Positions 924 to 23,598 of a DNA stretch of 64,000 nt are shown here, one piece after another. The first letter of the stretch is position 1, and every line of letters begins with the position of its first letter. The notes under the pieces are model-generated. The model was not told the origin of the DNA and made no database searches. It saw only the letters and a list, made by a program, of their open reading frames with translations. The stretch comes from Mobula hypostoma (taxonomy: Eukaryota), in NCBI RefSeq assembly GCF_963921235.1, contig NC_086097.1, positions 186,001-250,000 of the forward strand, in the 5' to 3' direction. The position numbers were made by a program, and so were the translations under genes.

Positions 924-3900
924 TAGAAACATAGACAATAGGTGCAGGAGTAGGCCATTCGGCCCTTTGAGCCTGCACCGCCATTCAGTATGATCATGGC
1001 TGTTCATCCAACTCAGATCCCTGTACCAGCCTTCCCTCCATACCCCCTGATACCTTTAGCCACAAGGGCCATATCTAACTCCCTCTTAAATATAGCCAAT
1101 GAACTGGCCTCAACTGTTTCCTGTGGCAGAGAATTCCACAGATTCACCACTCTCTGTGTGAAGAGGTTTTTCCTAATCTCGGTCCTAAAAGGCTTCCCCT
1201 TTATCCTCGAACTGTGACCCCTCGTTCTGGACTTCCCCAACATCGGGAACAATCTTCCTGCATCTAGCCTGTCCAATCCCTTTAGGATTTTATACGTTTC
1301 AGTAAGATCCCCCCTCAATCTTCTAAATTCCACCGACTATAAGCCTAGTCGATCCAGTCTTTCATCATATAATAGTCCTGCTATCCCAGGAATCAAGTGT
1401 GATCTCACCAAGGCCTTGTACAACTGCAGTAGTACCTCCCTGCTCCTGTACTCGAATCCTCTTGCTATGAATGCCAGCATACCATTCGCCTTTTTTACCG
1501 CCTGCTGTACCCGCATGCCCACTTTCAAAGACTGGTGTATAATGACACCCAGGTCTCGTTGCACCTCCCCTTTTCCTAATCGGCCACCATTCAGATTATA
1601 ATCTGTTTTTGCCACCAAAGTGGATAACCTCACATTAAACTGCATCTGCCATGAATTTGCCCACTCACCTAATCTATCCAAGTCACCCTGCATCCTCTTA
1701 GCATCCTCCTCACAGCTAATACTGCCGCCCAGTTTCGTGTCATCCACAAACTTGGAGATGCTGCATTTAATTCCCTGATCTAAGTCATTAATATATATTG
1801 TAAACAACTAATATTAATATATATGTAAGCACTGAGCCTTGTGGTACCCCACTCGTCACTGCCTGCTATTCTGAAAAGGTCCCGTTTATTCCCACTCTTT
1901 CCTTCCTGACATGATTTTCCTTTCACAAATCCATGCTGAATTTGTCCGATGATTTCACCACTTTCCAAATGTGCTGTTATCACATTTTTGATAACTGACT
2001 CTAGCATTTTCCCCACCACCGATGTTAGGCTAACCGGTCTATAATTCCCCGGTTTCTCTCTCCCTCCTTATTTAAAAAGTGGGGTTACATTAGCCACCCT
2101 CCAATCCTCAGGAACTAGTCCAGAATCTAAAGAGTTTTGAAAAATTATCACTAATGCAGCCACTATTTCTTGGGCTACTTCCTTAAGCACTCTGGGATGC
2201 AGACCATCTGGCCCTGGGGATTTATCTGCTTCTAATCCGTTCAATTTACCTAACACCACTTCCCTACTAACATGTGTTTCCCTCAGTTCCTCCATCTCAC
2301 TGGTCCCTATGTCCCCCTACTATTTCCGGAAGATCATTTATGCCCTCCTTCGTGAAAACAGAACCAAAGTAGTTATTCAATTGGTCTACCATGTCCTTGC
2401 TCCCCATAATCAATTCACCTGTTTCTGTCTGTAGGGGACCTACAGTTGTCCTAACCAATCTTTTTCTTTTCACATATCTATAAATGCTTTTACAGTCAGT
2501 TTTTATGTTCCCTGCCAGTTTTCTCTCATAATCTTTTTTCTCTTTCCTAATTAAGCCCTTTGTCCTCCTCTGCTGGACTCTGAATTTCTCCCAGTCCTCA
2601 GGTGAGCCACTTTCTCTGGCTAATTTGTATGCTTCTTCTTTGGAATTGATACTATCCCTAATTTCTCTTGTCAGCCACGGGTGCACTACCTTCCCTGATT
2701 TATTCTTTTGCCAAACTTTGATGAACAATTGTTGTAGTTCATCCATGTGATCTTTAAATGCTTGCCATTGCATATCCACTGTCAATCCTTTAAGTGTCAT
2801 TTGCCAGTCTATCTTAGCTAATTCACTTCTCATACCTTCAAAGTTACCCCTCTTTAAGTTCAGAACCTTTGTTTCTGAATTAACTATGTCACTCTCCATC
2901 TTAATGAACAATTCCACCATATTATGGTCACTCTTACCCAAGGGGCCTCTCACGACAAGATTGCTAATTAACCCTTCCTCATTGCTCAATACCCAGTCTA
3001 GAATAGCCTACTCTCCAGTTGGTTCCTCGACATGTTGGTTCAAAAAACCATCCCACATACATTCCAAGAAATCCTCTTCCTAAGCACCCTTACCAATTTG
3101 GTTCATCCAATCTATATGTAGATTGAAGTCACTCATTATAACTGCTGTTCCTTTATTGCACGCATTTCTGATTTCCTGTTTAATACCATCCCCAACCTCA
3201 CTACTACTGTTAGGTGGCCTGTACACAACTCCCACCAGCGTTTTCTGCCCCTTAGTGTTATGCAGCTCTACCTATATCGATTCCACATCCTCCCGGCTAA
3301 TGTCCTCCTTTCTATTGCGTTAATCTCCTCTCTAACAAGCAATGCTACCGCACCTCCTTTTCTTTCATGTCTATCCCTCCTGAATATTGAATATCCCTGA
3401 ATGTTGAGCTCTCATCCTTGGTCACCCTGGAGCCATTTCTCTGTGATCCCAACTACATCATATTCATTAATAACAATCTGCACTTTTAATTCATCCACCT
3501 TGTTACAAATGCTCCTTGCATTGACACACAAAGCCTTCAGGCTCGCTTTTACAACACTCTTACCCCTTATACAATTATGTTGAAAGGTGGCCCTTTTTGA
3601 TTTTTGCCTTGGATTTGCCGGCCTGCCACTTTTACTTTTCACCTTACTACTTTTTGCTTCTACCCTCATTTTACACCCCTCTGTCTCTCTGCACTTGCTC
3701 CCATCCCCCTGTTGTGAACTAACTTCCTCTCTCCTCGTCTCTTTAATTTGATTCCCACCCCCCAACCATTCTAATTTAAAGTCACCTCAGTAGCCCTCGC
3801 AAATCTCCCCACCAGGATATTGGTCCCCCTAGGATTCAAGTGTAACCCGTACTTTTTATACAAGTCACACCTGCGCCAAAAGAGGTCCCAATGATCCAAA

Positions 3901-16879: not shown

Positions 16880-17090
16880 TAAGACCATAAGATATAGGAG
16901 CAGAATTAGGCCATTCAGCCCATCAAGTCTGCTCTGCCATTCCATTATGACTGATCCTGGATCCCACTCAACCCCAAACACCTACCTCCTCCCCATACCC
17001 TTTGATGTCCTGACCGATCAAGAAACAATCAACTTCTGCCTTAAATATACGTACGGACTTGGCCTCTACTGCAGTCTGTGGCAGAGCATT
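16880..17090 (-). mobile_element. CR1 3' end fragment
   Basis: Tail taagaccataagatatagg and ORF2 terminus ALPQTAVEAKS. Confidence 0.8.
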
Positions 17091-17259
17091 CTTCCCTGCA
17101 CATCTGCCACCGCTCGTCTCTGCTTGCCATGATACCTCTTTACTCGCCTCTCCATTGTCATTAATCAAGTGTTATTAAATAGGCATATATTGCAGTTGTT
17201 TTCATTCCATTACAGTAATCGCTGGGCATCGCCAGTGTCATCTTAAACCGAAAGAACAA

Positions 17260-17486: not shown

Positions 17487-17709
17487 CAAACACGTGGAAA
17501 TCTGCAGATGCTGGAAATTCAAGCAACACACATCAAAGTTGTTGGTGAATGCAGCAGGCCGGGCAGCATCTCTAGGAAGAGGTACAGTCAACGTTTCAGG
17601 CCAAGACCCTTCGTCCTGACGAAGGGTTTCGGCCCGAAACGTCGTCTGTACCTCTTCCTAGAGATGCTGCCTGGCCTGCTGTGTTCACCAGCAACTTTGA
17701 TGTGTGTTG
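17487..17709. mobile_element. Palindromic Penelope-like terminal-repeat insertion with hammerhead motif
   Basis: Inverted arms ~17523-17615 / 17618-17710; 14-bp TSD CAAGTGACAGAGTG (17473-86, 17710-23); CTGACGA...GAAACGTC at 17616-17643. Confidence 0.9.
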
Positions 17710-17760
17710 CAAGTGACAGAGTGAATAAGATAAAGTGAACAGCAGACACTGAACCACTAC

Positions 17761-17933
17761 CTGTGACAATGAACCATATTGGTCTGGGTATCTTCCCAGG
17801 TGGTTTTGATCTCTCTCAGTGCCTGATGGATCTCGTGCTTCTTGGCTTCACTGGTGTGGTCCAGCAATAAATCTGCCTTCACCTGCACCTTATGTATCCA
17901 CATGCTTCCTTCAGGTTCCTTAGCCAAAATTTC
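17761..17933 (-). CDS. SYNE3: Nesprin-3 (SYNE3)-like second coding exon (173 nt, spectrin repeat)
   Basis: Not in the ORF track. Reads EILAKEPEGSMWIHKVQVKADLLLDHTSEAKKHEIHQALREIKTTWEDTQTNMVHCH, matching human KICQLEPEGRVRVDLVLRMAEALLACCPGDQKPGILARLKDIKAQWEETVTYMTHCH. Acceptor ttttatgtttgatag|GAA is phase 0 and fits the upstream exon; donor CAG|gtagtg. The next exon was not found, so the gene probably continues left of the window. Confidence 0.88.
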
Positions 17934-17980
17934 CTATCAAACATAAAAAAAATAAGGGAAGAGATAAAGATTGGCATGTA

Positions 17981-18229
17981 CATCGAAACATCAAAACATA
18001 TATGGAGATGTATCATTTTCATCCTAAACTAAACCATTCCAAGGTGTTCTGGTGGCAGCCCGCAAGTGTCAACATGCTTCTGGCACCAACACTAACCCTA
18101 ACCCAAATGTGGGAAGAACCTAGAACACCAAGAGGAAACCCATGCAGTCATGGGGAGAACATACAAGCTCCTAACAAACAGTGGAAGGAATTGAACCCTG
18201 ATCACTGGCCACTATTCTACTGTGTTGCC
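17981..18229 (-). mobile_element. Degenerate tRNA-derived V-SINE (HE1-like)
   Basis: Minus strand has B-box GGTTCAATTCC followed by a V-domain-like TGTTCTCCCCATGACTGCATGGGTTTCCTC...TTCTTCCCACA. Confidence 0.7.
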
Positions 18230-18276
18230 ACAAATAAAAAGTTGCCAATTTTTAAACAGTTGATTAACTCTAGTGA

Positions 18277-19716
18277 CTTGTTACACACACCTGTTAGGGT
18301 GCATTCTCCAGTTACCTTATAAGTAGCCTTCAGCCAGGAGCAGATGTCATCAGGTGGTTCCTAACCTTCACCGAGTGTTTTGACCCTTAACCACGACACC
18401 CTCCAGTTGCCAAATCACTGCCCGTCTGCTCCTGGCTTCCAGCTCCCCTCCTCTCGCCTACTCCAAATCCAACAAGAAGCTCGTTCTGCCTCTTCCCCAT
18501 CCTACGAACTGCTTGTTTTTTGCTCTTTTCGTTCAGGCCCAGATCTGACAACAACCGCCATGCTGATTTGGCTGGGAAACCTCTGCAGCCAATCTCCACA
18601 GGGAACAACCATGCCTGCCATCCCTTGTCTTTACACTCCTGCAGTAAAGGGCTGGTACTTCAAGGCCTTTCTCTCGTGGGCCTCTTCTCATCCCTCCTCC
18701 CACGGCACAGTCAACTCGACCAGAATTATTTTCTTGTCTTCCATTGACCACCGTACAATGTCCGGGCGTAGGATTGTGTGCACATCTGGGGAACTGCAAC
18801 CTCCTTTCCACATCGACCCTCATCTCCCAGGACCTGGCCGTTAGCAGCAGATTGGGCTTTGGTTGTTCGGTTACGAAAGGCCTGGCTCCCTCTTTGATGA
18901 AGGTGATGGCCTTCCTCAAATCTGTGCCAGCCATCCTCTTCTTGCATCTCTCCCGCTCTAGTGTGTCAGCAAGAGCCAGAAGCACCTTATCATGGCGCCA
19001 TCTACACCATCCTTGAGTTAGAGCTGTTTTACATCCAGACAGTATATGAGCCAGTGTCCTCTTTTTGACCACAGAGCTTACAGATCGGGTCCTCTCCCAT
19101 CCCTCATGTGTACAGATGTAATGGTGAAGGAAGGGTGTAATACACGGATCGCAAGAGGAAGGAAATACGGAAGGGCTCCAGTCTCCATAACTCTGCTCAT
19201 GAGATCTTGTGCTTAGGCAGATCCCATTTTGTCCAGGCACCCTGGGACCCTTGTTCCACTGTCTTTGAAATCTGCTTCTCTTCCTCACGGATCCGTACTT
19301 CTGCCTGTATCATGTCTCGCCTGTTCCCTATGCTTACGTTTCCCCACTTCTGGAAGTGAACTGAGCTGAGGTCTTGCTGCCCGACGCAGGGGTTGCCGAT
19401 GATATCTCGCAGCTTCAGAGAGCACACTGCCTCCTCCACAGCTGCGTTGGCTGCCCACTTATGCCCAGATATGGTTGTAACGCCTGCTCGCTTTACGAGA
19501 CGTCATTAGAATCTCTCAAGCTTAATAAAGCTCTGCATTTTGCCACCTTGAATTCCTCCACAACAGATGACAGGGGAAGCTGCAGTTGCCCAGACGAATG
19601 TAAAGGCCCACTGAAGAGAAGCTTGGGGAAACTCCCAACCATCTCTGCAGGTGCTTGTTGGTTTTCCTCTCGATGCCCTCTACAACAGTCATGGGAACTC
19701 ATAAAGTGTGAAGAGC
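18277..19716 (-). mobile_element. 5'-truncated Hero-like (RLE-type) non-LTR retrotransposon
   Basis: Frameshifted ORF with CCHC knuckle CKLCGQK/RTLAHILSGC, WRHDKVL, restriction-like endonuclease RPDIVRWS...IILVELTVPWEE and PVEIGCRGF. Flanked by 113-bp direct repeats. Confidence 0.88.
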
Positions 19717-20751
19717 CAAGCTCCTAACAAACAGTGGCAGGAATTGAACCCTGATCACTGGCCACTATTCTACTGTGTTGCCACAAATAAAAAGTTGCCA
19801 ATTTTTAAACAGTTGATTAACTCTAGTGAGAACCAGGCTGAATGTTGCAAACAAGAGAAAATCTGCAGATGCTGGAAATCGAAGCAACACCACACAAAAT
19901 GCTGGAGGAACCTAGCAGGCCAGGCAGCATCTATACAGTCGACGTTTCAGGCCAAAATCCTTCAGCAGGACTGGAGAAAGAAAGGTGAGTAGTAGATTTA
20001 AAAGGTGGGGGAAGGGGACAGAGAAACACCAGGTGATAGGTGAAACCTGGAGGGGGAGGGATGAAGTAAAGAGCTGCAAAGTCGACTGGTGAAAGAGAGA
20101 GAAAGCCATGGAAGAAAAAAAGGGGGAGGGACATATCAGAATGGGAATGGGAAGTGGTCACTGGGACATCTGGCTTGTTCTGGCGAACTGAGCATAGATG
20201 CTTGGTGAAGCCGTCTCCCAATCTACGTCGGGTCTCACTGATATACAGAAGGCCACACCATGAGCGCGAACACAGTAAATGACCCCAACAGACTCACAGG
20301 TGAAGTGTCGCCTCACCTGGAAGGACTGCTTAGGGCCCTGAATGGTAGTGAGAGAGGTGGTGTAGGAACAGGTGTAGCACTTGTTCTGCTTGCAAAGATA
20401 AGTGCCAGCATGGAGATCAGTGGGGAGGGGCAAATGAACAAGAGAGTCTCGTAGGGAGCAATCTCTGCAGAATGCAGAATGTTGGGGGGGGGGGAAGAAA
20501 GAAAGTTATGCTTGGTGGTGGGATCCTGTTGGAGGTGGTGGAAGTTTTGGAGAATTATGTGCTGGACAGGGAGGCCGGTGGGGTGGTAGTGAGGACAAGA
20601 GGAACCCTATCCCTGGTAGGGTGGCGGGAGGGTGGGTTAAGAGCAGACTACGTGAAATGGAAGAGATGCGGTTGAGGGCAACGTTGATGGTGGAGGAAGG
20701 GAAACTCCTTTCTTTGAAAAAGAAGACTATCTCCTTTGTTCTGGAATGTAA

Positions 20752-21346
20752 AGCTTCATTCAAGAGGTCTAGAATACAAGAGCAGGGATGTGATGCTGAG
20801 GCTTTATAAGGCACTGCTGAGGCCTCACCTTGAGTATTGTGAACAGTTTTGGGCCCCTTATCTTAGAAAAAATGTGCTGGCATTGGAGATGGTCCAGAGG
20901 AGGTTCAGAAAGATGATTTCAGGAATGTAAGAGTTATCATATGAGGAATGTTTGAAGGCTCTGGGTCTGTACTCGCTGGAATTCAGAAGGATGATGGAGG
21001 ATCTCATTGAAACCTTTCGAATGTTGAAAGGCCTAGACAGAGTAGATGTGGAAAGGATGTTTCCCATGGCGGGAGAGTCGAGGACAGCCTCAGGATAGAG
21101 GAGTGCCCTTTCAAACGAAAGATGCGGAAAAATCTCTTTAGCCAAAGGATGATGAACTTGTGGAATTTGTTGCCACATGCAGCTGTGGAAGCCAGTTCGT
21201 TGGTCGTATTTAAGGCAAAGATTGATAGGTTCTTGATTGGACATGACATCAAAGGTTACGGGACAAGGCCAAGAACTGGGGTTGAGGAAGGGGAAAAAAA
21301 AAAGGATCAGCCACGATTGATTGGCAGAGCAGACTCAATGGGCCAG
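20752..21346 (+). mobile_element. CR1 3' fragment (last ~30 bp displaced to 23600-23630)
   Basis: HLEYCEQFWAP motif; the 3'UTR is interrupted at gggcca|atggcct. Confidence 0.85.
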
Positions 21347-23598
21347 ATAGAAACATAGAAAATAGGTGCAGGAGTAGGCCATTTGGCCCTTCGAGCCTGC
21401 ACCGCCATTTATTATGATCATGGCTGATCATCCAACTCAGAACCCCGCCCCAGCCTTCCCTCCATACCCCCTGATCCCCGTAGCCACAAGGGCCATATCT
21501 AACTCCCTCTTAAATACAGCCAATGAACTGGCCTCAACTGTTTCCTGTGGCAGAGAATTCCACAGATTCACCACTCTCTGTGTGAAGAAGTTTTTCCTAA
21601 TCTCAGTCCTAAAAGGCTTCCCCTTTATCCTCAAACCGTGACCCCTTGTTCTGGACTTCCCCAACATCGGGAACAATCTTCCTGCATCTAGCCTGTCCAA
21701 TCCCTTTAGGATTTTATACGTTTCAATCAGAACCCTCTCAATCTTCTAAATTCCGATGAGTACAAGCCCAGTTCATCCAGTCTTTCTTCATATGAAAGTC
21801 CTGCCATCCCAGGAATCAATCTGGTGAACCTTCTTTGTACTCCCTCTATGGCAAGGATGTCTTTCCTCAGATTAGGGGACCAAAACTGCACACAATACTC
21901 CAGGTGTGGTCTCACCAAGGCCTTGTGCAACTGCAGTAGTACCTCCCTGCTCCTGTACTCGAATCCTCTCGCTATAAATGCCAGCATACCATTCGCCTTT
22001 TTCCACCGCCTGCTGTACCTGCATGCCCACTTTCAATGACTAGTGTATAATGACACCCAGGTCTCGTTGCACCTCCCCTTTTCCTAATCGGCCACCATTC
22101 AGATAATAATCTGTTTTCATATTTTTGCCACCAAAGTGGATAACTTCACATTTATCCACATTAAATTGCATCTGCCATGAATTTGCCCACTCACCCAACC
22201 TATCCAAGTCACTCTGCATCCTCTTAGCATCCTCCTCACAGCTAACACTGCCACCCAGCTTCGTGTCCTCCGCAAACTTGGAGATGCTGCATTTAATTCC
22301 CTCATCCAAGTCATTAATATATATTGTAAACAACTGGGGTCCCAGCACTGAGCCTTGCGGTACCCCACTAGTCACCGCCTGCCATTCTGAAAAGGTTCCG
22401 TTTATTCCCACTCTTTTCTTCCTGTCTGCTAACCAATTCTCCATCCACATCAATACCTTACCCACAATACCGTGTGCTTTAAGTTTGCACACTAATCTCC
22501 TGTGTGGGACCTTGTCAAAAGCCTTTTGAAAATCCAAATATACCACATCCACTGGTTCTCCCCTATCCACTCTACCGGTTACATCCTCAAAAAATTCTAT
22601 GAGATTCGTCAGACATGATTTTCCTTTCACAAATCCATGCAGACTTTGTCCGATGATTTCACCGCTTTCCAAATGTGCTGTTATCACATCTTTGATAACT
22701 GACTCCAGCAGTTTCCCCACCACCGACGTTAGGCTAACCGGTCTATAATTCCCCGGTTTCTCTCTCCCTCCTTTTTTAAAAAATGGGGTTACATTAGCCA
22801 CCCTCCAATCCTCAGGAACTAGTCCAGAATCTCACAAGTTTTGAAAAATTATCACTAATGCATCCACTATTTCTTGGGCTACTTCCTTAAGCACTCTAGG
22901 ATGCAGACCATCTGGCCCTGGGGATTTATCTGCCTTTAATCCCTGCAATTTACCTAACACCACTTCCCTACTAACAAGTATTTCGCTCAGTTCCTCCATC
23001 TCACTGGACCCTCTGTCCCCTACTATTTCTGGAAGATTATTTATGTCCTCCTTAGTGAAGACAGAACCAAAGTAATTATTCAATTGGTCTGCCATGTCCT
23101 TGCTCCCCATAATCAATTCACCTGTTTCTGTCTGTAGGGGACCTACATTTGTCTTTACCAGTCTTTTCCTTTTTACATATCTATAAAAGCTTTTACAGTC
23201 AGTTTTTATGTTCCCTGCCAGTTTTCTCTCATAATCTTTTTTCCCCTTCCTAATTAAGCCCTTTGTCCTCCTCTGCTGAACTCTGAATTTCTCCCAGTCC
23301 TCAGGTGAGCCACTTTCTCTGGCTAATTTGTATGCTTCTTCTTTGGAATTGATACTATCCCTAATTTCTCTTGTCAGCCACGGGTGCACTACCTTCCTTG
23401 ATTTATTCTTATGCCAAACTGGGATGAACAATTGTTGTAGTTCATCCATGCAACCTTTAAATGCTTGCCATTGCATATCCACCGTCAATCCTTTAAGTGT
23501 CATTTGCCAGTCTATCTTAGCTAATTCACGTCTCATACCTTCAAAGTTACCCCTCTTTAAGTTCAGAACCTTTGTTTTTGAATTAACTATGTCACTCT
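21347..23598 (-). mobile_element. 5'-truncated young CR1 family A
   Basis: ORFs 22040-22801 and 22832-23536; near-identical to 924-2900. Confidence 0.95.

Follow-up and report, generated by a model that had tools for sequence, protein, structure and literature searches.

R2 makes its second break at or upstream of the first, and its reverse transcriptase (RT) is capable of end-to-end template jumping. R9 of bdelloid rotifers, a LINE with a restriction-like endonuclease (RLE), is reportedly specific for a site in the rDNA, and a target-site duplication (TSD) of 126 bp is said to be the rule in that family. Little is understood of the second half of LINE integration, meaning the place at which the second strand is opened and the agent that opens it, especially for non-site-specific RLE elements. 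In the excerpted text of PMC4640811 and PMC9004415, the HERO clade comprises non-site-specific RLE LINEs of deuterostomes, and in that of PMC4640811, Utopia (NeSL clade) leaves 20-bp TSDs in its reptile families and none in arthropods. The excerpts of PMC4245944 (Yamaguchi, Kajikawa and Okada 2014) count long TSDs (>20 bp) among the recognised target-site alterations by LINEs, in which they form a minority class, and truncated inserts there show microhomology at their 5' junctions.

We analyzed a window of 64,000 nucleotides from Mobula hypostoma (contig NC_086097.1, positions 186,001 to 250,000), in which a LINE copy lies between direct repeats of 113 nt. The family of this copy shares with R9 an RLE and the occurrence of duplications of more than 100 bp, whereas the long TSD, reportedly the family rule for R9, was found here in 2 of 73 copies, at unrelated sites and with different lengths. 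It resembles R2 (structures 9nl3, 9dou of R2Tg, and 8gh6 and 8ibw of R2Bm) in having one open reading frame (ORF) in which the RT is followed by a CCHC knuckle and a C-terminal PD..(D/E)..K endonuclease, in lacking poly(A), in usually leaving no TSD and in forming head-to-tail tandems that fit template jumping; in contrast to R2, it is not rDNA-specific, its flanks being unrelated, and the absence of a single-sequence match in the PDB marks it as a distant relative. With HERO, to which the sequence-only reading had likened the element, and so far as the excerpts describe that clade, it has in common the RLE, dispersed copies, non-specific insertion and a vertebrate-type genome, HERO itself being defined by RT phylogeny. 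Utopia is likewise an RLE LINE whose second-strand cut varies in position between lineages and can lie far from the first, although its TSD length is a property of family and site and here the length varies from copy to copy. The long TSDs of de novo LINE-1 inserts, as the PMC4245944 excerpts present them, are similarly a sporadic minority of target-primed reverse transcription (TPRT), associated with 5' truncation, microhomology and an unfixed length, whereas LINE-1 is of the APE type with a normal TSD of ~15 bp and the family here is of the RLE type and normally leaves none.

The repeated host DNA and the element

The features on which the analysis rests are the following, in window coordinates.

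About 17962 or 17975 to 18209, unstranded: SINE-like host repeat of ~240 nt, its right end falling inside the duplication; genome matches cover positions 3 or 16 to ~250 of the query 17960-18276.
18164 to 18276, unstranded: left 113-nt copy of the target-site duplication, adjoining the element's 3' terminus; ~46 nt of SINE-like repeat end and ~67 nt of unique sequence.
18277 to 19716, minus strand: 5'-truncated RLE-type LINE copy, the 3'-terminal 1,440-1,442 nt of ~3,720-3,735.
18387 to 18659, minus strand: what is left of the RLE domain's C-terminal part (...FPVEIGCRGF...), and the 3' UTR.
18688 to 18819, minus strand: remnant of the RLE core (...LRPDIV...LVELTVPWEEG), its homologous D348 and E363 invariant; aligns to KPDLI/DVTVRYE of the R2 protein.
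19031 to 19057, minus strand: CCHC knuckle remnant (TLAHILSGC) that has lost its first two cysteines relative to the intact ORF of the longer copy L014.
19717 to 19719, unstranded: CAA microhomology of 3 nt at the 5' junction, common to element (...GAGCCAAAGAAGCC in other copies) and target (...ACATACAAGCTCC).
19717 to 19829, unstranded: right 113-nt copy, adjoining the truncated 5' end of the element and running on into the right flank.

The sequence-only reading had described 113-bp direct repeats with one mismatch bracketing a 5'-truncated element, and this was confirmed by pairwise alignment of 18164-18276 with 19717-19829, which gave 113 nt with no indel and a sole mismatch (A at 18174, C at 19727), and by blastn within the locus (99.1% identity, E 6e-55). 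A repeat finder reported a stretch of 120 nt at 97% (18157-18276 and 19710-19829), of which the extra 7 nt match at 4 of 7 positions and are attributed to chance. Element sequence at 19687-19696 and SINE sequence at 18146-18155 ('cagtcatggg', left flank) also resemble each other, a chance similarity outside the repeat that was set aside. The same reading took the repeat for pre-existing host DNA, and this held: the unit, composed of a repeat end and unique flank, occurs only twice in the 3.48-Gb assembly, both times at the window locus, and its repetitive part was limited to the first ~45-53 nt in a whole-assembly search. The 113-nt repeat is thus duplicated host DNA and not part of the element. 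It is A+T-rich and contains no CpG. The SINE-like repeat that runs into it, a candidate V-SINE in the sequence-only reading, has 2,458 candidates in the genome, and ARAGORN detected no tRNA in 17900-18300.

The position of the element's 3' end was determined from its other copies. With 18277-18700 as the query, 1,360 candidates were obtained from the genome, 40 of which were scored; all 29 other loci fetched among these have matches beginning at query position 1, 2 or 5 and have the terminus CTTGTTAC... in common, and the terminal 40-mer had 549 matches in the genome with up to one mismatch, compared with 0 for its reversed control. Therefore, the element is a repeated one with its true 3' end at 18277. 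The sense strand of the window copy ends ...GTGTAACAAG (also given as ...GTAACAAG) without poly(A). At the other end, the window copy ceases to match longer copies at element position 1442, corresponding to 19716-19718, where other copies go on ...GAGCCAAAGAAGCC and the window reads ...GAGCCAAGCTCC, as seen in the junction comparison with L023. Because CAA belongs to both element and target, the length of the duplication is given as 110-113 nt. The copy is cut off downstream of the RT, its reading frame is broken, and it has accumulated private indels (7 deletions and 2 insertions); a Pfam search of the ORF fragments in the window yielded a weak DUF3025 match alone (E 0.012).

The protein was characterized from a longer copy (L014 together with L031), in which one minus-strand frame, interrupted by stops in that copy, carries an N-terminal Cys/His motif, an RT with FMDD, and CCHC and RLE motifs. 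A search of 1.84 billion representative proteins returned 7,307 relatives, and a profile was built from an alignment of 20 sequences, namely, the L014 ORF and 19 relatives, in which C241, C244, H252, C257, D348, E363 and K379 are invariant. This profile matched the solved R2 proteins 9nl3_A (E 1.5e-60), R2Bm 8gh6 (E 7.8e-39) and R2Tg 9dou, and the endonuclease stretch aligned separately, with profile positions 910-1019 against residues 1042-1157 of 9nl3_A (i-E 4e-5) and pairings of RPDIV with KPDLI, ELTVpwE with DVTVRYE, and K..KY. A profile was needed, as phmmer with the single C-terminal ORF of L014 gave no match in the PDB. The Pfam domain RVT_1 was recognized above the Pfam cut-off in four longer relatives (P0007, P0013, P0033 and P0107; E 1e-13 to 3e-22), whereas the L014 fragment scored below it (E 1.2e-4) with the FMDD motif present. 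The family protein accordingly combines an RT domain with a CCHC knuckle followed by a PD-(D/E)XK restriction-like endonuclease, and by its predicted protein the element is an RLE-type LINE of the R2 group, the matches to R2 proteins not separating the clades within that group. The classification of the insert as a 5'-truncated RLE-type non-LTR element, already proposed from the sequence, was borne out by the shared 3' terminus, the stop of homology at 1442 and the R2 profile match.

Termini and flanking duplications in the family

In the assembly, this family is represented by no fewer than 549 3' ends, together with at least 309 candidate 5' ends. The longest copy seen has 3,720 nt and is without ~14 nt of the 5' end that is present in tandem copies, and the truncated copies range from 43 nt upward, with the 3' terminus shared by all sampled copies; the family thus displays the precise 3' end and variable 5' truncation that are the signature of TPRT. 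The 3' flanks of 60 copies are unrelated apart from a terminal TTA or TTG, and the family is without a sequence-specific target. Immediately before CTTGTTAC, the triplet is TTA in 22 of 60 copies and TTG in 7 of 60, compared with backgrounds of ~1.8% and ~2.1%, respectively. In two copies with duplications (L086 and L029, described below), the terminal TTG or CTG beside the 3' terminus lies outside the duplication, and the triplet is therefore element tail rather than target preference; the tail seems to be a variable partial repeat of a TAACAAG unit. The heptamer CTTGTTA was seen in 6 of the 60 flanks. The 5' truncation points cluster at 463-491 nt (eight copies: L006, L007, L009, L042, L048, L060, L061 and L084) and at 1408-1486 nt (seven copies: L008, L012, L023, L028, L040, L045 and the window copy at 1442), and these clusters may be pause sites of the RT.

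A census of flanking duplications was taken in samples drawn from copies with well-kept 3' ends. Set 1 consisted of the 29 best 3'-end matches, of which 17 end inside the locus, 2 are interrupted and 10 run off, 8 of the latter being extended as long copies. Set 2 was 30 copies in genome order (23 ending inside), set 3 was 20 more (15 ending inside), and set 4 was 8 more (5 usable). To these were added 10 full-length copies, located by their 5' ends and matched to 3' ends, of which 7 were usable (d and f being a single duplicated locus, and the upstream partial copies of b and c running off). L011, L051, L057, L112 and L114, in which the supposed 3' flank is another copy's 5' end, were dropped, L056 and L057 were counted as one composite, and L030, L115, five run-off copies of set 3 and six of set 2 were left unextended. 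The census covers 72 other insertions with both flanks visible and the window copy, that is, 73 of at least 549. For each, blastn (word size 7, E up to 0.01-0.1) was run with 300-854 nt of the 3' flank against all sequence lying beyond the 3' end; TSDs under ~12 nt were tested against controls in sets 1 and 2, and by blastn and eye in sets 3 and 4 and the full-length pairs.

As a result, a flanking repeat was absent from 70 of the 72 other insertions, including 7 full-length or composite ones and 7 of the 8 extended long copies, and 70 of all 73 were without any repeat reaching 10 nt. In sets 1 and 2 with the window copy, 41 copies in all, exact anchored matches of 4-6 nt were no commoner than in mispaired controls (matches of 0, 4, 5 and 6 nt in 21, 14, 5 and 1 of 41, compared with 104, 65, 28 and 5, and 3 longer, of 205 controls). 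Thus, the family normally leaves no duplication. The two exceptions differ from the window copy in the length of the duplication. L086 has an exact 15-nt duplication (TTCCATGTGTGATAC) adjoining both ends. L029, a nearly full-length copy (G000:C36, about 71.175-71.181 Mb, with L066), is surrounded by a duplication of ~289 nt that starts 4 nt from its 5' end and stops 3 nt from its 3' end, and that consists of a 124-nt unique part (90.4% identical, only two copies in 6.1 kb) and ~4 units of a 41-nt satellite, the array of which continues only beyond the right copy, the element sitting four units into it. Three further matches were rejected as TSDs: 57 nt at 75% in L060, which lies ~276 nt and ~150 nt from the junctions; 31 nt in L079, far from both junctions; and 13 nt in L018, inside the element.

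Duplications of more than 100 nt are therefore represented by 2 of 73 copies (113 and ~289 nt), with no peak near 100-125 bp, and a long TSD at nearly every insertion, as reported for R9, is not a feature of this family. The proposal made from the sequence that the second-strand nick falls ~110 bp away at each insertion is contradicted by the 70 of 72 other copies without a repeat: flanking-repeat lengths measured across copies were 15, 113 and ~289 nt, and among the other copies most have no TSD (70 of 72) and one has a short TSD of 15 nt. For a purely accidental process, two cases above 100 nt in 73 may be too many. With at least 549 dated copies that normally show no duplication, the family is a natural data set for the question of how the second strand is opened.

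Origin of the 113-nt duplication

We consider it likely that the window copy was inserted by ordinary TPRT in which the second-strand break happened 113 nt away and the 5' end was joined on the CAA microhomology, which would place it in the long-TSD minority class. In this sequence of events, the + strand would have been nicked after ...CTCTAGTGA (18276), and the 3'-OH at 18276 would have primed cDNA synthesis on the 3' end of the element RNA (...GUAACAAG), with reverse transcription stopping 1,440 nt in. The - strand would have been broken 113 nt to the left of the first nick (- strand: ...GGAGCTTG^TATG...), and the two breaks would leave overlapping 113-nt 3' overhangs, the cDNA end pairing with the overhang tip by CAA/TTG and fill-in copying the 113 nt on both sides. 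On this account, the uninterrupted site would be a single 113-nt unit joined directly to GAACCAGG.... Overlapping 3' overhangs are needed for a duplication; therefore, the + nick should lie after 18276 and the - break 110-113 nt to its left. The data show the anatomy of the locus with its exact ends, the CAA microhomology, the derivation of the repeat from host DNA and the statistics of the family; we infer the order of the nicks and the maker of the second break. The position of the second break is not fixed by the element, because the duplications are 15, 113 and ~289 nt long and most copies have none, and the usual product without a duplication implies that the second strand is broken level with the first or upstream of it, as in R2. 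The window case adds one example to a known class of rare outcomes, and the window copy alone shows no new mechanism.

One may ask whether the repeat was made at insertion at all, as the element could have entered where two tandem 113-nt units already met, or a later local duplication or gene conversion could have made or homogenized the repeat. The degree of identity speaks for such an origin, as one mismatch and no indel were found in 113 nt, despite 3.5% divergence and nine private indels in the element copy. Relative to the family majority, the window copy has diverged at 3.5% of sites (2.8% at non-CpG sites, 1.32% counting singletons only), from which 3.0-6.3 mismatches were predicted between the 113-nt copies versus the one observed, the probability of one or fewer being 0.20 to 0.013. 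The 113-nt copies are thus more alike than the age of the element copy predicts, and this copy is not young. However, the figure of 0.20 is that for the singleton rate, and the 113 nt, which are A+T-rich and contain no CpG, may plausibly have decayed more slowly; the copies, separated by 1.5 kb, could also have undergone gene conversion. Both boundaries of the repeat coincide with the element termini within 0-3 nt, which would otherwise be a matter of luck, the 113-nt unit is found nowhere else in the genome, and L029 independently shows the same geometry. An origin apart from the insertion is therefore unlikely.

Insertion by TPRT with a distant break could, in a broader interpretation, belong to a genuine second route of integration used at low frequency, with the opposite strand opening 100-300 nt away from the nick that primes synthesis, and we give this a slim chance. 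Nucleosomes and Okazaki fragments have dimensions of this order. If such a route were real, the long TSDs of RLE LINEs (R9, Utopia and the Mobula family) would be a shared latent property of the R2 group rather than accidents.

A further reading assigns the second break to the element, its own endonuclease or a second particle nicking the opposite strand ~100-300 nt away in the manner of a first-strand cut. The - strand end at the second break of the window copy, ...GCTTG^, is reminiscent of the 3' flanks, 29 of 60 of which end in TTA or TTG; however, the triplet belongs to the element tail in L086 and L029, where it is outside the duplication, the TTG at the window break is also accounted for by the CAA microhomology, and the second break of L029 (...GGTAGGGGCC^ with a 4-nt filler) is without a motif of the TTA/TTG type. 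We thus regard a minor element-driven route as quite improbable. The census leaves still less room for an endonuclease that, as in R9, routinely cuts the second strand ~110 bp away, perhaps by nucleosome spacing, and duplicates ~110 bp every time: duplications of more than 100 nt do occur (113 nt in the window and ~289 nt in L029), but lengths of 15, 113 and ~289 nt give no mode and 70 of 72 other copies have none, so that this is very doubtful. A false duplication of the 113 nt during assembly is hardly credible, as the two copies differ at one base, the 1.7-kb structure lies within a 256-Mb contig, and a contig of run X1 matches 19739-19872 exactly, across the end of the right repeat into the right flank. 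Contigs of the four public runs X1, X5, X20 and X15 were compared over 17950-20050; they are short (~100-450 nt) and swamped by other family copies, with no listed piece bridging either element junction and no 1,553-nt skip, the mark of an empty site, among the joints shown.

Tandem copies and other repeats

The usual behavior of the family is R2-like, with no TSD, head-to-tail tandems and often a partial copy ahead of a full-length one. Among 10 full-length 5' ends (...CACTGGTACAAACCAGA[A/G]ATTA), 8 are directly preceded by the 3' end of another copy with no spacer (L091, L093, L095, L097, L099, L101, L106 and L107), and the preceding copies are usually short, from 15 to >730 nt. Seen from the other side, 6 of 87 sampled 3' ends adjoin another copy's 5' end (L011, L030, L051, L057, L112 and L114). 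Such an arrangement would be consistent with an RT that jumps end to end from one RNA template to another. One full-length copy with identical flanks was encountered twice in opposite orientation, ~34 kb apart (L096/L097 and L100/L101; G000:C18, 87,250,285-87,255,194 and 87,288,500-87,293,407), representing an inverted segmental duplication.

Two other repeats were observed in the window. A dispersed repeat (CATA[A/G]A.ATAGG.GCAG...GGCCATT...), unrelated to the duplication, has copies on both sides of the region, at 16886-17091 and 21171-21560, in direct and inverted orientation. A near-perfect hairpin at 17523-17710, with 93-nt arms of 90% complementarity and a 2-nt loop, is a member of a repeat family of very high abundance (CTGCAGATGCTGGAAAT...), and half of such a copy lies at 19846-19971, just to the right of the duplication; the word depth at this hairpin repeat is in the millions in all four public runs.
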